NCBI GenBank assembly: GCA_947601485.1
Contig: CANQGF010000001.1
Span: forward strand, 1-56,198
DNA length: 56,198 bases
Origin: an uncultured Bacilli bacterium
GTDB taxonomy: Bacteria; Bacillota_I; Bacilli_A; RF39; UBA660
Direction: 5' to 3'
A program made the translations under genes and the position numbers. The notes under the pieces were generated by a model that saw only the letters and a program-made list of their open reading frames with translations, searched no databases and was not told the DNA's origin. Below are positions 9,371-48,626 of this stretch, piece by piece. Each line of letters starts with the position of its first letter. The stretch's first letter is position 1.

Positions 9371-9688
9371 TTATGGGGGCCTAAAGGAAGAGGTACGACA
9401 ACTTTTAATCCATTTTTGGGGTGATATTTTAAATTTATTACTACCAGCTTCATTTTTAAACGCGTCGAATTCGACACCTTTGAAATTTTCATTATTTAAT
9501 TTTTCTCACAATCCTAAATAAGCAATAACATCCTTATTACGCATCAGTTTTGAATAGGATATCTTGGATCATCTTCATCGGCATATCTAGCCAAATCTAT
9601 AAGCGAAATATATTCCTTATTTCCTATTCGCATAACATTAATTATTATTATTCACATTAATTTCTGATTTTATTATTTCTTTCTTCAT
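9371..9688 (-). pseudogene. Decayed KilA-N domain gene
   Basis: The minus strand reads MKKEIIKSEINV.. / ..GNKEYISLIDLARYADEDDPRYPIQN / MRNKDVIAYLGL*EKLNNENFKGVEFDAFKNEAGSNKFKISPQKWIK. This matches the conserved core of Firmicute KilA-N proteins as I remember it. It is broken by at least two frameshifts and a TGA at the conserved Trp, and truncated after about 100 codons. Confidence 0.7.
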
Positions 9689-9775
9689 ATTTTCCCTTTA
9701 ATCACTAAAATTTTTTTATCATAAATTGAAGTATATTAAAACTCGAACCATAAAAGTCCGAGTTTGGTATCTATC

Positions 9776-9861
9776 TGGTGCAGGTAAAGGGACTTGAACC
9801 CCCACGGATTGCTCCACTAGATCCTAAGTCTAGCGCGTCTACCAATTTCGCCATACCTGCA
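9776..9861 (-). tRNA. tRNA-Leu (anticodon UAG)
   Basis: 86-nt class II tRNA on the minus strand. Anticodon loop ct-TAG-ga, long variable arm, encoded CCA. Confidence 0.93.
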
Positions 9862-38267: not shown

Positions 38268-38432
38268 TACTTATCCATCCTATCTTTATAACTAATATAT
38301 CTTTAGTATTTCCATTTTCAGTTTATCATATACGCATTGCTTTTTGCAAGCTATAACTAGAGAATATTAACATATTTTAGAGATGTTATATTTTACCAGT
38401 TGTCTTTTTAAGAAAATATACTATAATAATAT

Positions 38433-38446
38433 TGAACAAACGTTTG
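38433..38446 (+). promoter_or_regulatory. Candidate LexA (Cheo/SOS) box
   Basis: tGAACaaacGTTTg lies between TATAAT (38422-38427) and the RBS GGAGG (38446-38450). The Firmicute consensus is CGAAC-N4-GTTCG. Confidence 0.5.
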
Positions 38447-38455
38447 GAGGATAAT

Positions 38456-39706
38456 ATGGAAGAAAGAGATATTTTATGTATTGATTTAAAAAGTTTTTTT
38501 GCTTCTTGTGAGTGTGTAGAAAGACACTTAGACCCTTTTTCTTATCCTCTAGTTGTAGCTAGTACCAAACAAGGAAATGGTGCTATTACTTTAGCTATTA
38601 CTCCCTACCTTAAAAGTAAAGGTTTAAAATCAAGAGGTAGACTTTATGAAATACCTAAAAATATTAAATATACTATTGTTCCTCCTCGGATGAGCCTTTA
38701 TATAAAAAAAAGTAAAGAAGTAGTTAGTATTTATTTAGATTATGTTTCAGAAGATGATATGCATATTTATTCAATTGATGAAGTTTTTTTAGATGTTACA
38801 GAATATTTAAATTTATATAAGAAAACTTCTTATGAATTAGCCGAAACTATTTTAAAAGATATTTATAAGAAAACAGGTCTTACTGCTACCTGTGGAATTG
38901 GTCCTAATCTTTTATTAGCTAAAATTGCGATGGATACAGAAGCAAAGAAATATAAAAATGGGATTGCTAAATGGAGTTTTGAAGATATCCCTACGAAATT
39001 ATGGCCACTTAGTCCTTTATCTAAAGTTTGGGGTATTGGTAGTAGGATGGAAAAAAGATTAAATGCTTTAAATATTTTTTCCATCTATGACCTAGCCCAC
39101 TACCCTAAAAATAAGTTAAAAGATAAATTTGGGGTTATGGGTGAAGAATTATGGAACCATGCTAATGGCATTGATTTAAGTAGAATAAGCGACTACAAAA
39201 ATATAGCTAAAGATAAATCTATTAGTCATAGTCAAGTTTTATTTAAAGATTATAATGGTAATAATATTCGTTTAATTATTGCCGAAATGACTGATGTTTT
39301 AATGCAAAGATTAAGAGAAGAAAAAAAGCAAACTAGTTGTGTTGGTTTAGGTATAGGTTATTCTAAAAATATAGGTGGAGGTTTTTACCATGTAACTAAA
39401 TTAGATAATCCTACTGATGATGTTAAAGTTATTTTAAATACTATTTATCTTCTTTTTGATAAATATTATGATAATCTTCCTATTCGTAAAGTTAGTTTAT
39501 GTTTTTCAAGACTTAGTGAAAAAAAGATGGTTCAATTGAATATTTTTGAAACAATTAACCATATTAATACCGAAGAAAACTATAATAAGACAATTGATGA
39601 AATTAAAAATAAATTTGGGAAGAATAGTATTTTAAAAGCAACAGCTTTATTAGAAGATTCTACTGCTATCTCCCGTAATCAAAAAATAGGAGGTCATGAA
39701 CAGTGA
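38456..39706 (+). CDS. Y-family DNA polymerase (UmuC/UvrX/DinB-like)
   Basis: ILCIDLKSFFASCE N-terminus and SIDEVFLDVT catalytic motif. ATG at 38456 after GGAGG (the tracked TTG at 38432 overlaps the SOS box). Confidence 0.88.
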   Translation: MEERDILCIDLKSFFASCECVERHLDPFSYPLVVASTKQGNGAITLAITPYLKSKGLKSRGRLYEIPKNIKYTIVPPRMSLYIKKSKEVVSIYLDYVSEDDMHIYSIDEVFLDVTEYLNLYKKTSYELAETILKDIYKKTGLTATCGIGPNLLLAKIAMDTEAKKYKNGIAKWSFEDIPTKLWPLSPLSKVWGIGSRMEKRLNALNIFSIYDLAHYPKNKLKDKFGVMGEELWNHANGIDLSRISDYKNIAKDKSISHSQVLFKDYNGNNIRLIIAEMTDVLMQRLREEKKQTSCVGLGIGYSKNIGGGFYHVTKLDNPTDDVKVILNTIYLLFDKYYDNLPIRKVSLCFSRLSEKKMVQLNIFETINHINTEENYNKTIDEIKNKFGKNSILKATALLEDSTAISRNQKIGGHEQ

Positions 39707-40017
39707 ACGACCGTGGGATAATAAAATGGCAACCTTTTGCCTCTTTAATTTCTTCTAAAGAAGTTATTAATTCTATTTTAAAAGGCAAAAATAAAATAGA
39801 AAAGCCAATATTATCTTCCGACCAATTAGAAACTTTAAATGCCCTTTTAAAAGAAAGTTATTACACCCAATCCCAAACTATTATTTATTATTTTAAAAAT
39901 AATCAAATATATAAAATCACGGGTATTATAACGGAAATCAATCAAAATACTAAGATTATTACTATAAATAAACAAATAAAATTACATATTTCGCAAATTT
40001 TACAAATAAACACTTGA
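39703..40017 (+). CDS. YolD-like protein
   Basis: GIIKWQPFASL N-terminal motif. Overlaps the polymerase stop, the usual partner arrangement. Confidence 0.7.
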   Translation: MNDRGIIKWQPFASLISSKEVINSILKGKNKIEKPILSSDQLETLNALLKESYYTQSQTIIYYFKNNQIYKITGIITEINQNTKIITINKQIKLHISQILQINT

Positions 40018-40056: not shown

Positions 40057-40133
40057 GGGGAATTAGCTCAGCTGGCTAGAGCACCACGTTTGCACCGTGG
40101 GGGTCAAGGGTTCGAATCCCTTATTCTCCACCA
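40057..40133 (+). tRNA. tRNA-Ala (anticodon UGC)
   Basis: Acceptor ggggaat/attctcc with G3:U70, loop tt-TGC-ac, encoded CCA. Confidence 0.93.
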
Positions 40134-40211
40134 AATTGATATTAAACTCGAAACTCGAGTAAAAATATAAAACGACTTGTAGTAAAGTCGTTTTTATGTT
40201 ATGATGGATAT

Positions 40212-40320
40212 GTCAAGGAAACTTGCATAAAATAAAAAAGGAACATTTAATATTGTCTGTGTTGAGTGTTGCCAAAAAGTTGGTTCACCTAAATCATTGC
40301 TGAGTTAGGTGATTTTCTTT
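40212..40320 (+). ncRNA. Antitoxin-type sRNA, unit A
   Basis: Promoter TTGTAG (40177-40182), 17 nt, TATGAT (40200-40205). Terminator tcacctaa/ttaggtga (40285-40312) plus T-run ending at the toxin stop codon. Antisense to the toxin mRNA 3' region. Confidence 0.55.
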
Positions 40321-40402
40321 ATATTAAAACTATAAATAGTAATAATACTAATAGGAAGATAAGAATTACTAGAGAAAGAATTAAAAAATCCTTCTTGTTC
40401 AT
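40319..40402 (-). CDS. Type I toxin peptide A, 27 aa (MNKKDFLILSLVILIFLLVLLLFIVLI)
   Basis: ATG 7 nt after GGGAGG. Short basic N-terminus followed by one TM helix. Confidence 0.65.
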   Translation of the reverse strand: MNKKDFLILSLVILIFLLVLLLFIVLI

Positions 40403-40462
40403 TATATCGCCTCCCTTCTTTAGAAGTTCGGCAATCACCCAACTATTAAATGTTCCTAATAA

Positions 40463-40491
40463 ATTATATCAAACAAATGTTCCTAACACAA
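40463..40491 (-). promoter_or_regulatory. Promoter of toxin A mRNA
   Basis: Minus strand: TTGTGT (40491-40486), 17 nt, TATAAT (40468-40463). The +1 at about 40457 is the first base of the 5' arm AGGAACAUUUAAUA. Confidence 0.6.
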
Positions 40492-40562
40492 TGTTTTTAT
40501 ACTGAATTTTAAATTTAGAAAGCATACTTGATAAAGGTGTGTTTTTATGTTACGATGAATAT

Positions 40563-40673
40563 GTCAAGGAAACTTGAATAAAATAAAAAAGGGAATACTT
40601 AACAGCGTGATGTTGAGTACTCGCCAATACTTTGGGGAGCACTTAATCTTGTTAGATTGAGTGCTTTTCTTTT
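40563..40673 (+). ncRNA. Antitoxin-type sRNA, unit B
   Basis: Promoter TTGATA (40528-40533), 17 nt, TACGAT (40551-40556). Terminator agcacttaatct/agattgagtgct (40638-40665) plus T-run. Confidence 0.55.
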
Positions 40674-40683
40674 ACATAGTATA

Positions 40684-40767
40684 CTATATTACAAAAGTAA
40701 AAAGTAAGGCTATTAGTAAAAAGATAATAAGAATAAGTGATAAGATTAAAAAATCTTTCTTAGACAT
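40684..40767 (-). CDS. Type I toxin peptide B, 27 aa (MSKKDFLILSLILIIFLLIALLFTFVI)
   Basis: ATG 8 nt after GGAGG. Paralog of peptide A. Confidence 0.65.
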   Translation of the reverse strand: MSKKDFLILSLILIIFLLIALLFTFVI

Positions 40768-40828
40768 ACTATCAGCCTCCTTCCTTTTAGAAGTTGGCAA
40801 GCACTCAACTGCCAAATATTCCCAATAA

Positions 40829-40857
40829 ATTATACCAAACAATTGTTCTTGACACAA
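40829..40857 (-). promoter_or_regulatory. Promoter of toxin B mRNA
   Basis: Minus strand: TTGTGT (40857-40852), 17 nt, TATAAT (40834-40829). The +1 at about 40823 begins the 5' arm GGGAAUAUUUGGCAG. Confidence 0.6.
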
Positions 40858-40930
40858 TGTTTTTATAAGAATTTATGACAATTTCAAAAGCACACTTGAT
40901 AAAGGTGTGTTTTTATGTTACGATGGATAT

Positions 40931-41040
40931 GTCAAGGAAACTTGAATAAAGAGAAAAGGATACATTTGATTGGGGAAATCAAATGCAATCCCTTATGGAG
41001 TGCATCTGAAATCAACTATTGTTGAAATCAGATGCTTTTA
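40931..41040 (+). ncRNA. Orphan antitoxin-type sRNA, unit C (no toxin ORF)
   Basis: Same promoter as unit B (TTGATA 40896-40901, 17 nt, TACGAT 40919-40924) and the same 5' sequence gtcaaggaaacttgaataaa. Own terminator gcatctgaaatcaac/gttgaaatcagatgc (41002-41035). The toxin RBS and ORF are missing downstream. Confidence 0.45.
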
Positions 41041-41098
41041 CTATTTTAGAAGTAAAATAATAGCAAACACACTTGATAAAAGTGTGTCTTTATTAATT

Positions 41099-42487
41099 TT
41101 ATTCATCTAATAAATCTAGTGAATTTTTATATTCAGCTATTTTTTCTTTGTATTCATTTATTTTTTCTTCATATAATTCTTTTTGTTCGGCATTTAAAAT
41201 TACTTCTTCATTGTATTTTTCTTCCCAGTCTTTTATTTCTAACTCTTTTTGATTTAACTCAGTTTGTAATTTATTTAAATAACTATTACGTTCTTTAGCT
41301 TGGTATTCTTCTTGATTAGCTAATAATTTTTCAATATTATTTTTAGAAGTAATTACTTTAATTTCACTTAAACATAAATCATTATAATTATGAATTTGTT
41401 TTTTTCGTAAATCTGCAATAATTAAATTAAATATAGTTTGACCGGAAGCTTTAGGTTGTTTATGAATAGTAACTACCCCATCACTAACATTTAATTCATA
41501 ATTACTAAAATCTTTATAATAACTAATTTCAATTTTAATATTATCATTTAAACTATTATCTTCTATATAAGATATTTGTCTAGCATTTAAAATAAGTAAA
41601 TTATCTTGCATAGGATATTCTTTAGTATCTACTACTTGAGAAATATTATCAGGTGCTTTATCTATATATTTAAAATTAGCAATATCTAAAGAAGTAATTC
41701 CTAAACCAATACCTAATACTACTACACCAGATATTAAACTGATAAATGTTTTTTTAGATGGTTTTTTAATATTAAAAATAAAGTTAAATAATATTTCTAA
41801 AATAATTATATTTAAACTTAATACACCTAAAATACTAAGTATGACACCTAGATAAAATACTTTTTGAAAAATTAAAGAGATGGAAAGAGCTAGAAGTATA
41901 GCTACAAATAATAAAGAAATAATAAAAGGAATAGCTATAATTATAGCAATAAATTTAAGAAAACAAATTCCTAATTTCCCCAGAAAATCTAATATACTTA
42001 TATTTTTAGAAGTTTTTATATTAGTTTTAGTTTCATTAGTTATAATTTTAATATCTTTATGTTCTTCTTGTTTATTTAGATATTTTCTTTGAAATATATT
42101 AATAAATATAGCAAGACATATAACGATATAACTTACTTGTAAAACTACTTCCCAAACATTACCTACAAATTCTCCTAAAATAGGAATTTGCCATAAAAAG
42201 TCTCTTCCCATTTTTATTATTATATTAACAGGAATACAACATAAAATGAAAATGCCAAATATAAATACTAAAAATACTAGGAATTTGAGAAAATCTTTAA
42301 ATTTTAGATGACTAAAATAATTTAAAGTATCATCAAAGAATTTAATGACTTTATCAATATAAGTTTCTAAATTTCTTTTTGGCGTAGCTTGATTTAATTT
42401 AACTTCATTATTAACGAGTTCATCTAAAGTACATCCAAAGATTTTACTCATTGCAATTATTTTATCCATTTCCGGATAGGCAGTACC
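41099..42487 (-). pseudogene. 3' portion of an XRE-HTH membrane protein gene split by element insertion
   Basis: The frame reads G-TAYPE-MDKIIAMSKIFGCTLDELV..., which is the second half of an XRE HTH domain. Multiple TM helices and a coiled-coil tail follow. There is no RBS or plausible start of its own upstream of MDKII. Confidence 0.8.
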
Positions 42488-44162
42488 TGTTTACTTGTTC
42501 AAATGACACAAGCTCATTTTTGTTTCCTTTTTTGTTAGAATAAGTTAAAAATCTTTCTTCACCTGTTTTTAAAACAAATCTTATTATTTTAGGATTTTTA
42601 TTTTTGTTTTCATCATAGCCACCAATGATAATTTTTTCTACTATACTATCAAATGCCTCTTTATCAAATTGCTTTAAAGTGGTTGGTTCTTCAAATATTT
42701 TTTCTATTTCTCCAATTTGTTTAGTTAAAGTTTTATTTTCACTTTCTAACATTTCGTAATTTTTTATTTCTTCTTTAATTAAATCCAATTTCTCATTTAT
42801 TTCTTTTTCTTTTGAAATATATGCCTCTTTATGCTCGTAATCATCTAATTTCATATCAATTAAATTTGATAATCTTTTTTGTAGGGTATTTTTTTCATTA
42901 TTTAAGTTATCAAGTTTTTTCTTATAATCATTATCACTTATAACTTCTTTAATAGCATTTATCATTAAATCTTTGGTCTTATATTTATTTTTTATTATAG
43001 AGTTATACATTTGAACAAATGCACTTTCTAATAATTCTTCTCTTATAAGTAAAGCATCTTCGCAATTTTTTACATTAACTACTTTATTATAACAACTCCA
43101 ATAGACTACTTGGCTTCCATTTTTTCGTTTGCTACTAACTCTACGTGCATAATTTGTTCCACAAAATCCACATTCTATTTTGCTACTAAAAGCATATCTT
43201 TGACTAAATTTACCAAAATGTTGTTTACCATTAGGTATTATCTTATTTCTTCTTTTTTCTAATATTTCTTGTGCTTTTTCCCAAACTTCACGAGATATTA
43301 TTGCCTTATGATGATTTCTAACACGATATAGTTCTTTTTCTCCATAATTTCTTACTTTTTTATGAGTTAAAGGACTAATAGTGTAATTCTTTTGTCCTAA
43401 TAAATCACCAACATATTTTTCTTGCGAAATCATAGTTCTTACGTATTGTTGCGACCATTTCTTACCACCTGGCGATTTTACACCCATTTCATTTAATTTA
43501 TTGGCTATTATTCTTGATCCGATACCATCACAATACCAATTAAAAACCTTTCTTACAATTTCGGCTTCTTCTTCATTAATAGTTAGTTCTTTAGTTTCTT
43601 TGTTCCAATTATACCCATAAGGGTTTGCTTTACCGACAGGTTCACCATTTTTCATTTTGGCTCTTAATCCCATTGTTACATTTTGTGAAGTTGATTCACT
43701 TTCTGCTTGTGCAAATGCACTATAAAGAGTTAAAAACATCTCACTATCTAAATTAAGTGTGTGTATATTTTCTTTTTCAAAATATACATCTATTTTCTTA
43801 TCCCGTAAATCACGTACATATTTTAAAGTATCAACAACATTTCTAGCAAATCTTGATATAGATTTTGTAATGATTACATCAATCTTACCATTCATAGCGT
43901 CATTTATCATTCGTAAAAATTCTGTCCTGTTTTTTACTCTTGTTCCACTAATACCCTCATCAGCGTAAATACCTACAAACTCCCATTCAGAATTGGCTTT
44001 GATTTTTTCAGTATAATATCTTATTTGAGATTCATAACTTGTTAGTTGTTCTTCACTATCAGTACTAACTCTCGCATAAGCGCATACCTTTTTCTTTTTA
44101 CTTAAGGAAACATTAACGTTTTCAGTTTTGAGATTAGGTTTAATAATCTCAACCTGTGTCAT
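42462..44162 (-). CDS. Large serine recombinase
   Basis: N-terminal resolvase domain (VCAYARVSTDSEEQLTSYESQ, catalytic Ser), recombinase domain, Zn-ribbon (CGFCG...WSCY) and a coiled coil. The last 7 codons and the stop lie in host DNA beyond attL. Confidence 0.92.
   Translation of the reverse strand: MTQVEIIKPNLKTENVNVSLSKKKKVCAYARVSTDSEEQLTSYESQIRYYTEKIKANSEWEFVGIYADEGISGTRVKNRTEFLRMINDAMNGKIDVIITKSISRFARNVVDTLKYVRDLRDKKIDVYFEKENIHTLNLDSEMFLTLYSAFAQAESESTSQNVTMGLRAKMKNGEPVGKANPYGYNWNKETKELTINEEEAEIVRKVFNWYCDGIGSRIIANKLNEMGVKSPGGKKWSQQYVRTMISQEKYVGDLLGQKNYTISPLTHKKVRNYGEKELYRVRNHHKAIISREVWEKAQEILEKRRNKIIPNGKQHFGKFSQRYAFSSKIECGFCGTNYARRVSSKRKNGSQVVYWSCYNKVVNVKNCEDALLIREELLESAFVQMYNSIIKNKYKTKDLMINAIKEVISDNDYKKKLDNLNNEKNTLQKRLSNLIDMKLDDYEHKEAYISKEKEINEKLDLIKEEIKNYEMLESENKTLTKQIGEIEKIFEEPTTLKQFDKEAFDSIVEKIIIGGYDENKNKNPKIIRFVLKTGEERFLTYSNKKGNKNELVSFEQVNRYCLSGNG
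42485..42488. other. attL crossover core (ACCT on the + strand)
   Basis: The same 4 nt occur at 48513-48516. The host reading frame is restored exactly when the two copies are merged. Confidence 0.6.
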
Positions 44163-44254
44163 TTTACCTCTCTTTCTTTAGTTAATATTCTTAAATGAAT
44201 ACATCAAAAGTATTCATTTACATTATACCTTATTTTTTTACTAATCGGTAGCAT

Positions 44255-44419
44255 TTAATAAAAACTTTGTACTCTTTCTTTTAAAACATAATATTGTTTT
44301 TCGTTAATTAAATTCAATTTTAATAATCTTGATAGAATAGACATATTTATTGATTTATCAATAATATTATCTATTTCTAGTTGTGTTAAATTCTTTTCTT
44401 TAATATCATCTTCTTTCAT
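44255..44419 (-). CDS. Small protein (54 aa), unknown
   Basis: ATG after GAGGGGG, not in the ORF track. Sequence: MKEDDIKEKNLTQLEIDNIIDKSINMSILSRLLKLNLINEKQYYVLKERVQSFY. Confidence 0.5.
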   Translation of the reverse strand: MKEDDIKEKNLTQLEIDNIIDKSINMSILSRLLKLNLINEKQYYVLKERVQSFY

Positions 44420-44767
44420 ATTTGATTTTCCCCCTCTCTTTTTTATATTTTATACTTTTTTAACATACTAATCTCATTCCTTTCGTTAATTGCTTTCTTT
44501 TAATATTAAATCTCTTATAATTTTCCTACACTCATAAAAAACATATTTACTACAAATTACTAACTAAAAAAGTCAATAATATCCCTATGAGGAATAAATC
44601 TCCTTTTAGTAATAATTTGAGCTATAACATATATATTTTATTTATTATAGTTCTTTGAAATATGTTATAGTTCAAACTTGTATTCATCTTATATTTTTAT
44701 AAGATAGGTTCTGATATAAGCCTTAATATCTTACCGAGCCTCTTATAACTAGTGTTTATTAAACTTT

Positions 44768-45025
44768 CTAGTTAAGTGTTATTGTGTACATTCCATTAGA
44801 ATATTCCTTGTATATTAGATATTTTAATTCTTCTAATATTTTAAGGTTTTTTCTCAAGCCAATATTTTTGATGTTAATTACTTGTTGTATCTCTCCAACA
44901 TTTATATCTGTAAGAATTTTATCAAATCCTTTGCTATAAATATATGAGTAGATTAACTTTGCTTCTTTTGGAATTCTTTTATCTTTCCAAATTTCTTGTG
45001 GTACTTCTAGTTGTCTTAATCTCAT
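44768..45025 (-). CDS. Small winged-helix-like DNA-binding protein (85 aa)
   Basis: RBS AGGAGG. Transcribed divergently from the XRE gene. A role as regulator or directionality factor is inferred only. Confidence 0.6.
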   Translation of the reverse strand: MRLRQLEVPQEIWKDKRIPKEAKLIYSYIYSKGFDKILTDINVGEIQQVINIKNIGLRKNLKILEELKYLIYKEYSNGMYTITLN

Positions 45026-45050
45026 TCATAACATTCCTCCTTTCTTTTGA

Positions 45051-45138
45051 TGACTTTTACATCAATTACCATTAGTCTAGCACTATATTTTGAGTTTGTC
45101 AACATTATAATTATAATATTGTTGATTTTTACATCAAT
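45051..45138. promoter_or_regulatory. Divergent control region with repeated operator-like sites
   Basis: Direct repeats tga[c/t]ttttacatcaat at 45051-45066 and 45123-45138. Inverted repeat tcaaca(45099-45104)/tgttga(45120-45125). Extended -10 TGtTATACT at about 45142-45150. Confidence 0.45.
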
Positions 45139-45182
45139 ATGTGTTATACTTGTTTTAGCAAACGAATAGGAGGTGTTTAAAA

Positions 45183-45779
45183 ATGTTAAAGAAAAATACA
45201 ACTAAACTTGGTAAAACTATATGTGAAGCAAGAGAAAAAATAGGTATTTCACAAAGAGAACTAGCAAGACAAGCAAATATGGATTGTGCGGAAGTATCAA
45301 GAATAGAAGCTGGTAAAAGATTAAAGCCAAATGTTTTATATTTAAAAGGAATTGCTGATACATTAAATTTAAGTATGGTCGAATTAATGAAACTTGCAGG
45401 ATATAGCGATATAGATATAAATTTAGGACAAGATCTTCCAAATAAAAGATCTACTTCTGATTATCAAAAACAAATCCAAAGTTATGAACAATTTTATTTT
45501 GATGTTTTAGAAGAATTAGAAAATAGAAGAAAGGTTGACTTTGCTATTAAGGGTGGTATTGCAGATATAATAGATAATATAGAGTTATCTAAAATAGAAA
45601 AAAAAGAAATATCAAATGATGAAATATTGGATAGATTAAAAGAGTTGATCCCAATGATAAGACCTAATTTAGAAAAATTTGATAAATCTAAATATCCATT
45701 ATTTGATAAAGGAGTATTTCCCAAAAAAGATTTAAAATCAAATATTAAGTATAATTCTATTACAGATAATAAAGAATAA
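45183..45779 (+). CDS. XRE-family transcriptional regulator (198 aa)
   Basis: HTH ISQRELARQANMDCAEVSRIEAG. RBS AGGAGG. Confidence 0.8.
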   Translation: MLKKNTTKLGKTICEAREKIGISQRELARQANMDCAEVSRIEAGKRLKPNVLYLKGIADTLNLSMVELMKLAGYSDIDINLGQDLPNKRSTSDYQKQIQSYEQFYFDVLEELENRRKVDFAIKGGIADIIDNIELSKIEKKEISNDEILDRLKELIPMIRPNLEKFDKSKYPLFDKGVFPKKDLKSNIKYNSITDNKE

Positions 45780-45967
45780 TTTTTTCAAAACAAAAAATAA
45801 TCTTTTTGCCATTAAACATAAAGATTATTTTTATATAAAATATATACAGAATTTTAAAATAGGATTTTTCCTTTTCCCACCGTTATTGGCTTGCCAATAG
45901 CGTAGTGGGTTACCGTTTTGGAAAAATGGTCTATTAAAATTCAATACCAATAAATCATGAATTTTAC

Positions 45968-46876
45968 TTAATTATGTATTTTGGAATTAGCTAATTTTAA
46001 TTTTTTGGTTTCGCTTAAATCTTGTTCAAGCCAAGATTGTAAATTAATCGTTTCCATATTAAAATCTAGTTTATTTTCACCTATTTTATCCTTAGGAACA
46101 TCAAGTATTTTTAATAAGTTTAACGATAAATCTGATAAATTCATTTCATTTTTTTCAATAGTTTCAATGTCCCTGTATTGTTCAAAACCTTCTACTATTT
46201 TGAACCCCTTTTCATTAAGTAATAAATTAATAATTTTATATAATTCTTTATTCCATTTTTCTATTTCTTCTTTATCTTGTCCAAGATGTTGAATAATATC
46301 AATTGGAAACGGTCTAGTTTTTTTATCTATATGCATATTAATACATTCATCAATATTTATCATAATACTTTTCAAATAAGAATGAACTTCTGGGTATTCA
46401 AAATCCAATATTTTCATTTGATAAGCATTTAAAAAATATTGTTCAATTTGCATTCCTAAAAATTTGATATACGCTAATAAAGATATATAAGTATTTTCGT
46501 GGCCGTCAACTACATATTTACCATTAACAATTATATGATTATTATAAAAATCAACTCGTTTAGCTAAATCTGCTATTTGCTTTAAACTAAAGTTTTGAAA
46601 AGGATATAGTAAATTCGACTCATTATTATAGTCAACATAGTTATATAAATCTCGATATTTTATTGCATATTCTTCAATACTTTTCATTTGATTACTATTA
46701 TTAAGTTTATGAATGCCAATTGTATTATAATTATCATCTAATAAAACAAAAATATCTGTTTTTGGAGAATTTAATATAATAATATCGTTATATACATTAA
46801 ATTCATTCCAGTCTAGTCCATAATCTACACATTTACTTCTGAAAGCCAAATCATCTCTTATTGTATTTTTATCCAT
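45968..46876 (-). CDS. Hypothetical cargo protein (302 aa), no family recognised
   Basis: Intact ORF with RBS AAGGAG. The largest non-mobility gene in the element. Confidence 0.75.
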   Translation of the reverse strand: MDKNTIRDDLAFRSKCVDYGLDWNEFNVYNDIIILNSPKTDIFVLLDDNYNTIGIHKLNNSNQMKSIEEYAIKYRDLYNYVDYNNESNLLYPFQNFSLKQIADLAKRVDFYNNHIIVNGKYVVDGHENTYISLLAYIKFLGMQIEQYFLNAYQMKILDFEYPEVHSYLKSIMINIDECINMHIDKKTRPFPIDIIQHLGQDKEEIEKWNKELYKIINLLLNEKGFKIVEGFEQYRDIETIEKNEMNLSDLSLNLLKILDVPKDKIGENKLDFNMETINLQSWLEQDLSETKKLKLANSKIHN

Positions 46877-46971
46877 AATTGAATACTCCTTTCAACTTAA
46901 AGTAATTTAATATATATACTATTCTACCATGCTTTTTCAATTATTACTACATGTTTTTAAACAATTTGTTT

Positions 46972-48267
46972 TTATAAATTCATATCATAATCTTCTTTTT
47001 CTTTTTCATCTTCGTAGTCTGAAAAATCTTTTTCAGTTTTATAATAATCTGGTACATTTGCATATTTAAATAAACTATCTTCTTTAGTTGTACCTGTGGC
47101 AATATCTTTTACATCTTCCATTTCAAAATCACAGTTGTCATAATATTTTTTAACTTCATTTTCAGTATAATCTTTAATATATTCTGTACCTATTTGTAAT
47201 AGTTTTCTGAAAAAATATTTGATAACATTTATTATTCTTTTTATTTGATACATTAAACTTTTGTTTTCTTCTTTTAATTTTTTGTTTCTTAATTTTAAAT
47301 TATCAACTTCTTTTTTGTATTTTTGATTTTCTTTCTCAAGTATTTTATATCCACTAGAATATCCATTTATCTCATCAAATACTTCATTTATTTTAGGTTG
47401 TAATTCTACAACTTTTTTTGATTCTTTAACTATTCTTTTCATAGTATTAAAAGTATCCACATTAACAATTACTTGATTTTTATTAAAAGGAATATTTTTA
47501 GTAACTTTCATTTGTTTAACAAATTCATCTATTGATTTATCAAGTCTATCATTTCTAACATTTAAATTTTCTTCTAATTTTCTATTTATCTTTTTATAAT
47601 CTTTAATTTTAATATGTTTTCTATCACTACCCTTAATACCTCTTTCTAAATCATAATCTTTATCAGTTAATCTTTTATAATATTTATCTTGTAGTTCTGA
47701 CAAATGTATTTTATCTTTTATGTATTTCTTTTTAGAAATAGTATATCTTTCACTATTAGTTCTTTTATCGTATTTTTTAATAAGTGGAACAACAATGCAA
47801 TGGATATGTGGTGTTTTTTCATCTAAATGTACTGTTGCATGTAAAATTTGTTCTCTAGTATATCCTAAATCTTTATAAACAAATTCCATACAAGTATCAG
47901 CCCATTTTTTTATATCATCTTTTGTCATATTTTTAAAGAATTCATTAGTAGCAGTAAATAGTAATTCATCAGCAACAACATTATTTGATTTATCTAACAT
48001 TTGTTTAAAAGTCTTTTTTCTATCTTCACGTTCTGTTTTCATTCTTTCCTCATGTTCTTTTCTATAATCTTTTACTATATTATAAAACCCTTTAACATAT
48101 TTATCTGTTAAAGGGACTAGTTCTATATTATCTTTACTTTTTTCTATATCTATATCTGGATTAGAATTATAAGAGTTTTTTTCTCTTTTATTATGTGATC
48201 CGATTTGTGCTAAATCGTTTATAGTCATTATCGGTTCACTTCTAAATATTGCATAATTTAAATTCAT
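46972..48267 (-). CDS. MobV-family relaxase (Mob/Pre)
   Basis: N-terminal HNKRE motif and HLDEKTPHIHCIVVP (HxDExxPHxH). Long coiled-coil C-terminus. RBS GGAGG. Confidence 0.88.
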   Translation of the reverse strand: MNLNYAIFRSEPIMTINDLAQIGSHNKREKNSYNSNPDIDIEKSKDNIELVPLTDKYVKGFYNIVKDYRKEHEERMKTEREDRKKTFKQMLDKSNNVVADELLFTATNEFFKNMTKDDIKKWADTCMEFVYKDLGYTREQILHATVHLDEKTPHIHCIVVPLIKKYDKRTNSERYTISKKKYIKDKIHLSELQDKYYKRLTDKDYDLERGIKGSDRKHIKIKDYKKINRKLEENLNVRNDRLDKSIDEFVKQMKVTKNIPFNKNQVIVNVDTFNTMKRIVKESKKVVELQPKINEVFDEINGYSSGYKILEKENQKYKKEVDNLKLRNKKLKEENKSLMYQIKRIINVIKYFFRKLLQIGTEYIKDYTENEVKKYYDNCDFEMEDVKDIATGTTKEDSLFKYANVPDYYKTEKDFSDYEDEKEKEDYDMNL

Positions 48268-48494
48268 ATATCAAACCTCCTATCTTTAAATCTATATAAA
48301 ATAAAAAGATATGCTTTTTTAAACATACCTTTTACCTAAATTCAAAACTGTTAAAATTTACTTTTATTTTGATATGGATACAATAATGTTAAAAATATCA
48401 CCAATTTCGATTTTTTTTGAAACTTCTAACTTCATATTTAAGTTATTATTTTTCCCTTTAAAATAAAGCAAATCTCTTATTTTTTTATTATGTG

Positions 48495-48626
48495 TCATTT
48501 GACAATGGAAACACCTAATTCCCATTTAGATACAGCTTGTCTAGAAACATTTAGCTTCTCTGCCAGTTGTTCTTGAGACATATGTTTTTCTTTTCTTAAT
48601 TTTTGAATATTATCACAAAATTTCAT
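48495..48626 (-). pseudogene. 5' portion of the split XRE-HTH membrane protein gene
   Basis: RBS GAGGTG followed by MKFCDNIQKLRKEKHMSQEQLAEKLNVSRQAVSKWELG, then 5 element-encoded codons and a stop. The HTH is cut in helix 3. Confidence 0.8.
48513..48516. other. attR crossover core (ACCT on the + strand)
   Basis: Identical to 42485-42488. Host codon GGT (Gly38) is shared by both junctions. Confidence 0.6.

Follow-up and report, generated by a model that had tools for sequence, protein, structure and literature searches.

Three tandem units, here called A, B and C, occupy the 958 bp on the 3′ side of a tRNA-Ala(UGC) gene (40057–40133, plus strand) in a stretch of 56,198 nucleotides (nt) from an uncultured Bacilli bacterium of the RF39 lineage (GenBank assembly GCA_947601485.1, contig CANQGF010000001.1), hereafter the window. 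We propose that each unit is a type I toxin-antitoxin module with a 3′-overlapping cis-antisense RNA, which would work like bsrG/SR4 of Bacillus subtilis, and we place the probability of this reading at roughly 0.78. The putative toxin is a minus-strand peptide of 24–31 amino acids (aa) with a short basic N-terminus and a single predicted transmembrane helix. The putative antitoxin is a small RNA (sRNA) from the opposite strand, fully complementary to the last ~95 nt of the toxin mRNA, a segment comprising the hairpin of the 3′ untranslated region (UTR) and the 3′ arm of a long helix that closes the message.

Convergent genes and predicted RNA structures

The array is AT-rich (26% GC), and its units start 351 and 368 bp apart. 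On the minus strand, the predicted toxin promoters read from the sequence lie at 40463–40491 in unit A (TTGTGT-17-TGATATAAT) and 40829–40857 in unit B (TTGTGT-17-TGGTATAAT), both of the form TTGTGT-17-TATAAT with a TGn extension of the −10 box. A leader of ~55 nt leads to the ribosome binding site (RBS) GGAGG (40414–40410 in A, 40780–40776 in B), 7–8 nt upstream of the ATG of a 27-aa open reading frame (ORF), which translates to MNKKDFLILSLVILIFLLVLLLFIVLI for toxin A (40319–40402) and MSKKDFLILSLILIIFLLIALLFTFVI for toxin B (40684–40767). The predicted mRNAs span 40230–40457 and 40580–40823. On the plus strand, the predicted antitoxins sRNA-A (40208–40321), sRNA-B (40559–40675) and sRNA-C (40927–41043) each have their own promoter, consisting of TTGTAG or TTGATA, 17 nt, and TGnTATGAT or TACGAT. 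The sRNA-A promoter is set in an element at 40169–40205 whose hairpin (40169–40194) is terminator-like on both strands; its loop holds the −35 box TTGTAG (40177–40182), and an extended −10 box, TGTTATGAT, ends at 40205. Two inter-unit elements, assigned to repeat family D3 and recovered in the terminator scan, repeat this design at 40520–40556 (hairpin 40520–40545, sRNA-B −35 box TTGATA) and 40888–40924 (hairpin 40888–40913, sRNA-C −35 box), each with the −10 box TGTTACGAT. Placement of the −35 box in the loop of a terminator-like hairpin is kept in most homologous loci. The sRNAs end in terminator hairpins with T-runs at 40285–40320 (hairpin 40285–40312), 40634–40675 and 41001–41040, and the U-tract reaches the toxin stop codon. 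The initial annotation, made from the sequence alone, had described this tandem array, the toxin promoter, a strong RBS before 27-codon ORFs, and a convergent sRNA gene with its own promoter and terminator overlapping the toxin mRNA by ~95 nt; we recovered all of these in A and B, and our translations are identical to the two peptides it quoted.

Homologous modules were collected in two scans. One, anchored on the sRNA 5′ motif and run over one genome per species, gave at least 127 sites in at least 118 loci, with true homologues throughout the matches listed. All 127 listed sites share the promoter and the 5′ part of the sRNA and have a variable second hairpin, and at 82 of them a convergent hydrophobic ORF with an RBS starts 181–215 nt from the sRNA motif or start. 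The other scan was independent of the sRNA, querying metagenomes for GGAGG, ATG and codons for KKDFLI, and gave at least 123 sites in at least 120 loci, with homologous ORFs in 110 of the 123 listed. Convergent promoters are predicted at conserved positions in more than 200 homologous loci.

The predicted toxin mRNAs, ~230–245 nt long, are highly structured. mRNA A (40457 to 40228) folds at −66.5 kcal/mol (z-score −7.9) and mRNA B (40823 to 40578) at −79.8 kcal/mol (z −8.5), with none of 200 shuffled sequences as stable in either case. In the minimum free energy (MFE) structure of each, a closing helix of ~30 pairs joins the 5′ end of the mRNA to its 3′ end in two segments that follow each other without a gap on the 5′ side but have a bulge of 7–8 nt between them on the 3′ side. 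Its 5′ arm (40457–40430 in A, 40823–40789 in B) pairs with a 3′ arm (40273–40239 and 40628–40591, respectively), and a U6AU4 tract (40238–40228 in A) follows directly after the last pair. This helix encloses a hairpin adjoining or including the RBS, then the ORF and, in the 3′ UTR, a hairpin complementary to that of the sRNA terminator. The pairing of mRNA ends had been noticed before as a stem of 14–15 bp; the pairing is present, but that stem is only the outer segment of the ~30-pair helix.

Covariation of the stem, previously argued from units A and B, holds when more homologues are aligned. An unguided MAFFT alignment of 74 homologous mRNAs, folded with RNAalifold, returned exactly three helices, namely the two segments of the closing helix and the 3′ UTR hairpin. 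In these helices, 93.2% of alignment cells are paired compared with 30–43% when the 3′ partners are slid by 1–3 columns, and 433 cells carry double changes compared with 24–83 after sliding; the observed value was reached in none of 500 shuffles, a control that ignores the relatedness of the sequences, whereas the slid-partner controls account for it. Across homologues the closing helix is ~26–30 bp long in general; in the MFE structures its median length is 26 bp, and 55 of 57 reach 15 bp or more. The U-tract follows its last pair in all 74 aligned mRNAs, with the next hairpin ~40–60 nt downstream. A TATAAT-like box precedes the 5′ arm by a few nt at nearly every locus, which puts the beginning of the arm at the predicted transcription start, the interval being 0–6 nt in an automated measurement that trims one base upstream of the arm and ~5–8 nt by eye. 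The bulge in the 3′ arm (median 7 nt) is predicted to be single-stranded, with a pairing probability of 0.05, and the RBS has a predicted pairing probability of 0.83 against a baseline of 0.66.

The sRNAs of the three units, ~113 nt long, are predicted to fold into a 5′ hairpin (SL1; UCAAG-GAAA-CUUG), an A-rich linker, a second hairpin (SL2) and the terminator hairpin. Their folding free energies (ΔG) and scores against covariance model R1 are −32.7 (z −4.3) and 98.3 bits for sRNA-A, −39.7 (z −6.8) and 108.4 bits for sRNA-B, and −35.5 (z −5.5) and 78.9 bits for sRNA-C. SL2 and the 5′ arm of the mRNA are almost identical in sequence and form inverted repeat I1 on the DNA. In 94 sequences of the sRNA-anchored set, 93.4% of cells in the sRNA hairpins are paired compared with 28–39% after sliding. 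The corresponding values for 98 sRNAs of the toxin-anchored set are 94.0% and 32–41%, in an alignment made with the covariance model and so leaning towards the model structure. All three hairpins covary in this second set, one SL1 position being CG in 33 sequences and GC in 27. An apparently invariant 18-mer, ATATGTCAAGGAAACTTG, was considered as a functional motif and rejected as a search artefact, as it is exact in 6 of 110 toxin-anchored loci and SL1 covaries.

A G·U pair on one strand corresponds to an A·C mismatch on the other, so that the ratio of the two marks the strand on which a helix is under selection. The closing helix has 150 G·U against 22 A·C on the minus strand, and SL2 has 138 against 7 on the plus strand. 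For the sRNA terminator the counts are 74 against 19 on the plus strand and 8 against 23 when read on the mRNA strand. This asymmetry indicates that structured RNA is made from both strands, and it is the strongest sequence-level evidence for convergent transcripts.

Coding, linkage and specificity across the family

Judged by its substitution pattern, the putative toxin ORF is coding and under purifying selection. Among 311 pairs of homologous ORFs, the ratio of non-synonymous to synonymous differences (pN/pS) is 0.40 in frame compared with 0.67 and 1.41 in the other frames, and differences at codon positions 1, 2 and 3 number 1675, 934 and 2180, that is third > first > second. GGAGG lies 6–11 nt from a conserved ATG in the homologous loci, and the ORF is 27 aa long in 86 of the 110 toxin-anchored loci listed. 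The ORFs fall into about six sequence types, each with its own SL2 and terminator sequence, across which the design of the peptide, a charged N-terminus followed by ~20 hydrophobic residues, is constant.

Toxin and antitoxin genes are closely linked. In the toxin-anchored set, 81 of 92 intact toxin genes have a convergent match to the covariance model, and 91 of 92 a convergent partner by eye. Of the 11 without a model match, ten lack SL1 but still have the 3′ UTR hairpin and 3′ arm together with a −10 box on the opposite strand, and one is followed by unrelated DNA. Variant modules of this kind (L259, L282, L286, L292, L296, L312, L315, L318, L327 and L341) encode an sRNA seemingly devoid of SL1 and the A-rich linker, with a −10-like box directly after the 3′ arm of the closing helix.

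Unit C retains the antitoxin side. Its sRNA promoter, sRNA and terminator are intact, while the toxin promoter, 5′ UTR, RBS and first ~18 codons are gone, and the sequence upstream of the remnant is the 3′ end and terminator of the neighbouring gene. The initial annotation had called this an orphan antitoxin left by deletion of the RBS and ORF. This is right in substance, unit C being best described as a toxin gene minus its 5′ half beside a functional-looking antitoxin gene, but the ORF was not cleanly deleted: comparison with intact and truncated C-type loci shows that the last 21 nt, six codons and the stop (..IILLLK*; 41041–41061, minus strand), remain along with the whole 3′ UTR. The missing 5′ half was searched for elsewhere in the window, on the idea that a 6-kb mobilizable element had split the gene, and it is not there. 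In six C-type modules of other genomes (L160, L167, L195, L201, L204 and L221), the toxin is likewise 5′ truncated, independently and at differing breakpoints, and the sRNA gene is intact. Because such loci were found through the sRNA, their count is biased and the asymmetry between toxin loss and sRNA retention is only suggestive.

The sRNAs appear to be specific to their own mRNAs. Predicted duplexes reach −149 and −161 kcal/mol for the cognate pairs compared with −34 to −57 kcal/mol for non-cognate pairs. sRNA-C, which is of the C type (SL2 GGAUACAUUUGAUUG..AAUCAAAUGCAAUCC) and whose relatives elsewhere are paired with MTKREFSQFIIILLLFLVVIILLLK toxins, has a predicted duplex energy of −105 kcal/mol with a C-type mRNA of another genome and −34 to −40 kcal/mol with mRNAs A and B. 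Orthogonal RNA–RNA pairs of this kind could be used in engineering. More broadly, over 200 natural variants in about six specificity types form a covariation data set for studying the locking of a toxin mRNA and its release or destruction by a 3′ antisense RNA.

Nearly all carriers are metagenome-assembled genomes recovered from the gut of humans, rabbits, goats, chickens and mice, and their records bear the labels Bacilli, Tenericutes, Mollicutes or Erysipelotrichaceae. The initial annotation went without the size of the family and its linkage to tRNA genes at large. Peptides and RNAs of type I systems, being short, are known to evade homology searches and gene callers (PMC12390103, PMC8594479). 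A large, uncultured branch of gut Bacilli carries the present family in abundance, and the protein, RNA and defence libraries we searched missed it. Rfam gave only tRNAs at gathering scores over the whole window, and chance-level matches up to E 10 in the array. The exact peptides and their extended ORFs are absent from a collection of 15 billion proteins, and the 57-aa extended ORF of unit B had a single, unnamed match in a protein homology search. A search of a paper library on the peptide motifs, the sRNA motif and type I systems in these taxa found nothing specific, and none of its papers prints either kind of motif.

Relation to known type I systems and proposed mechanism

The closest likeness is to bsrG/SR4 and the related bsrE/SR5, bsrH/as-bsrH, txpA/RatA and yonT/SR6, which likewise have converging genes and an antisense RNA that overlaps the toxin mRNA at its 3′ end. 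In the bsrG mRNA, nt 1–35 and 232–262 form helix P1, SL1 holds the RBS, and SR4 overlaps the 3′ end (PMC3834814). These architectural elements (P1, RBS in SL1, 3′ hairpin) have their counterparts here, a likeness in working rather than membership: the first ~35 nt of bsrG pair with the 3′ region in a long bulged helix from which an RBS hairpin, the ORF and a 3′ hairpin branch off, the terminator hairpin of the antitoxin is complementary to the 3′ hairpin of the mRNA, and the toxin is small with a single transmembrane helix. However, SR4 has 183 nt compared with ~113 nt for the sRNAs described here, and bsrG carries a separate terminator, SL4, one nt after P1, where our mRNAs have a U-tract directly after the closing helix. 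Also unlike bsrG/SR4, SL2 mimics the 5′ arm of the mRNA and its loop faces the bulge of the helix, the hosts are uncultured gut Bacilli, and the modules are linked to tRNA genes rather than prophages. A comparison by hhalign with BsrG detected no homology (probability 0.2%).

Other systems also share traits with these modules. In par (Fst, RNA I–RNA II) of Enterococcus faecalis plasmid pAD1, an intramolecular helix (5′-UH) sequesters the extreme 5′ end of the mRNA and a 5′ stem-loop sequesters the RBS (PMC7472228); convergent promoters, complementary terminator stem-loops and a membrane peptide of ~30 aa are further points in common (PMC7472228). However, complementarity between the 5′ regions of the par RNAs comes from the direct repeats DRa and DRb, whereas inverted repeat I1 gives the same sequence to both RNAs here. 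The signature of the Fst/Ldr superfamily (a Trp with a highly charged C-terminal tail after it, and P/D/S/TxxxG within the transmembrane segment) was not found in peptide alignment A3, where Trp and PxxxG are absent and C-terminal Lys number two at most, and hhalign against Fst gave a probability of 0.1%. The full-length toxin mRNAs of the Gram-negative systems hok/Sok and AapA1/IsoA1 are, as proposed here, locked by pairing of their 5′ and 3′ ends (PMC8594479). Their antisense RNAs are directed at the 5′ or translation-initiation region, and activation depends on 3′ processing; the sRNA described here instead covers the last codons, the 3′ UTR and the 3′ arm only, and the peptides are unrelated. 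By sequence, the units contain the generic parts of a type I system, with a promoter and RBS for a hydrophobic peptide of <60 aa, a gene for a pairing antisense RNA, and cis elements in the mRNA that would restrain translation, of which the RBS part is predicted. Because they resemble known families in architecture and match none in sequence, we file the modules as a new family of type I toxin-antitoxin system, which on present comparisons is like bsrG/SR4 in architecture only.

We hypothesise that the closing helix hides the 5′ end of the mRNA and, together with a paired RBS, would keep the message stable but poorly translated. The loop of the sRNA terminator could make first contact with the loop of the 3′ UTR hairpin. 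SR4 initiates pairing with bsrG through its terminator loop in the same way (PMC3834814). The SL2 loop may also contact the bulge of the closing helix. Since SL2 has about the same sequence as the mRNA 5′ arm, the sRNA can in principle displace that arm, and SL2 would then take its place on the 3′ arm. RNase III would cleave the resulting duplex of ~95 bp, and the mRNA, its 5′ end now free, would become open to a 5′ exonuclease. If the sRNA were lost, the stable mRNA would be translated and the peptide would damage the membrane.

Several points weigh against this reading. The predicted promoters and terminators are consensus matches, and promoter-like sites in the region do not exceed those in shuffled sequence. 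The RBS has no conserved pairing partner: the partner belongs to the 5′ UTR in 47 mRNAs and to the ORF in 24. Two 3′ ends are conceivable for the mRNA. One is the U-tract behind the closing helix, which would then serve as the terminator stem; the other is the bidirectional hairpin ~60 nt downstream. Replacement of the 5′ arm by SL2 and a role for RNase III are steps that we infer, and the orphan loci carry the bias described above. All carriers are uncultured metagenome-assembled genomes. The peptides match no model in Pfam, NCBIfam, PHROGs or PADLOC and belong to no known toxin family, in line with the initial annotation, which could not assign them to one. Finally, units A and B stay below the gathering score of 55 bits for the Rfam model of BsrG (RF01412), with correct-strand scores of 14.5 and 11.1 bits (E 1.1 and 9.1). 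On the other side, promoters, selection, covariation, strand asymmetry, linkage and recurrent toxin truncation, the sequence-level points on which the type I interpretation made testable predictions, all came out as predicted.

tRNA linkage, alternative readings and neighbourhood

The position of the array behind a tRNA gene recurs across the family. A tRNA on the sRNA strand ends 47–108 nt (mostly 72–88) before the sRNA at 35 of 127 sRNA-anchored and 21 of 107 toxin-anchored sites (20–28%), with Leu, Thr, Arg, Met, Ala, Phe, Lys, Glu and Gly identities (loci L121–L238 and L243–L362). The interval consists of a conserved trailer (GATTGATAnnAAACTCGAAC..GTTCGAGT) followed by the promoter hairpin. 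In the window, the tRNA-Ala was called by ARAGORN (Rfam tRNA 68.1 bits), and its trailer (AATTGATATTAAACTCGAAACTCGAGTA...; 40134–40168, plus strand) includes a small hairpin at 40146–40160. The same trailer occurs behind many tRNA identities with or without a module, and its form with a T-run is also found behind tRNAs lacking one, such as tRNA-Leu at window position 9776. Beyond the toxin promoter, a right-end motif (..AAATTTTGTCAATTTAGnAAACACACTTG..hairpin) recurs at 40500–40545, 40870–40913 and 41061–41093 in the window and in the right flanks of L148, L150, L156, L164, L229, L236 and L237, a pattern that points to a separate cassette ~0.4 kb long whose ends are defined; no recombinase is associated with it. 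Arrays of two to four units of differing types are common. A strain variant of the present locus, L241:2560-3202 (ENA ERZ27249248), has units B and C at 95.9% identity, but unrelated DNA stands at the position of unit A. The variant's changes are concentrated in the SL2 loop and 3′ arm, and its toxin B has an altered stop codon.

The fixed position behind tRNA genes and the stacking of types suggest a route of spread for these cassettes that has not been described. A fuller version of this idea holds that a self-contained ~0.4-kb cassette with defined ends spreads to, or recombines at, the conserved tRNA trailer, that its mRNA lacks a local terminator hairpin and uses the closing helix as an intrinsic terminator stem, and that the antitoxin acts by toehold-mediated displacement of the 5′ arm. 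We regard this combination as tentative and, taken as a whole, unlikely. If true, the tRNA-trailer cassette would account for differing types stacked behind tRNAs of at least nine identities without an integrase of their own. A similarly unlikely proposal, compatible with a type I mechanism, is that the module is a cargo or terminal module that stabilises an integrative element at tRNA genes, the array marking the end of an island instead of being a free-standing chromosomal toxin-antitoxin system. The fixed distance from the CCA end of tRNAs of at least nine identities fits such an island, as do the nearby Y-family DNA polymerase and YolD-like gene and an element with a serine recombinase and Mob_Pre relaxase; known Bacillus type I systems also reside on prophage-like elements. 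However, a 15-mer scan of IMG/VR viral contigs gave only chance matches without BLAST similarity to the units, with none for a specific 26-mer, and blastn of units A and B found no match among PLSDB plasmids and GenBank phages. Moreover, the mobilizable element in the window sits in a neighbouring gene and not at the tRNA, the flanks of the modules vary widely between loci and are often ordinary genes, and the tRNA trailer occurs without any module.

Two further readings dispense with a toxin. The peptide might be a small membrane protein without toxicity, such as a regulator or an accessory subunit, whose expression a cis-antisense RNA adjusts with no addiction involved, given that the sequence evidence supports coding and an antisense architecture and that the peptides match no toxin family. 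We consider this improbable, as a protein of that kind would not readily explain tandem diverged paralogues each with a private antisense RNA, the predicted sequestration of the RBS and locking of the 5′ end, a toxin side that almost never stands without its antisense partner, repeated 5′ truncations of the ORF that retain the sRNA, and array content that differs between strains. It is more improbable still, in our judgement, that the ORF goes untranslated and the units are a structured non-coding RNA pair or a tRNA-linked repeat or terminator cassette with an incidental hydrophobic ORF. ORFs rich in Leu, Ile, Phe and Lys arise easily at 26% GC, and the modules do have conserved ends behind tRNA genes; but the in-frame pN/pS and the order of codon positions, the spacing of GGAGG from a conserved ATG, the retained length of 27 aa, and the charged N-terminus and ~20 hydrophobic residues in all six types speak for translation. 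A type I toxin-antitoxin module remains our preferred reading of each unit.

Further tRNA-proximal copies, for which the initial annotation had proposed a search, include one in the window itself. This fourth, divergent module (280–640) has the same architecture with the toxin on the plus and the sRNA on the minus strand, lies ~125 nt after tRNA-Glu, and matches covariance model R1 at 466–594 on the minus strand (28.8 bits, E 0.0014). Its predicted mRNA (301–570, plus strand) has a closing helix of 16 + 17 bp followed by U7 (ΔG −86.9, z −7.6), and the convergent sRNA (~606–462, minus strand; fold z −6.6) has a different 5′ hairpin. The RBS GGAGG could serve an ATG at 379 (39 aa, not hydrophobic) or at 395 (23 aa, MEYLIILAIIIYLINAKDTHNKD).

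A fourth copy of the inter-unit hairpin (41065–41089; repeat family D3 and terminator scan) is the predicted terminator of the gene beside unit C, now 456 aa and originally 498 aa. This XRE-type helix-turn-helix (HTH) membrane gene of ~498 aa (41099–42469 and 48497–48625, minus strand) is split by an integrative mobilizable element of ~6 kb (42470–48500) encoding a large serine recombinase (42462–44162), an HTH protein (45183–45779) and a Mob_Pre relaxase (46972–48267). Directly upstream of tRNA-Ala, at 38432–40017, are a gene for a Y-family DNA polymerase with IMS domains and a YolD-like gene, a pair typical of Firmicutes mobile elements or SOS cassettes. Reading TGA as Trp (genetic code 4) was rejected for the contig as a whole: 84% of it is coding under code 11, and 6 of its 39 long ORFs end in TGA. 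After tRNA-Leu (9776–9860), an ORF fragment at 9500–9740 on the minus strand (..PRYPIQN*MRNKDVIAYLGL*EK) has in-frame TGA at two positions where Trp is expected, and may be the remnant of a recoded or code-4 mobile element.

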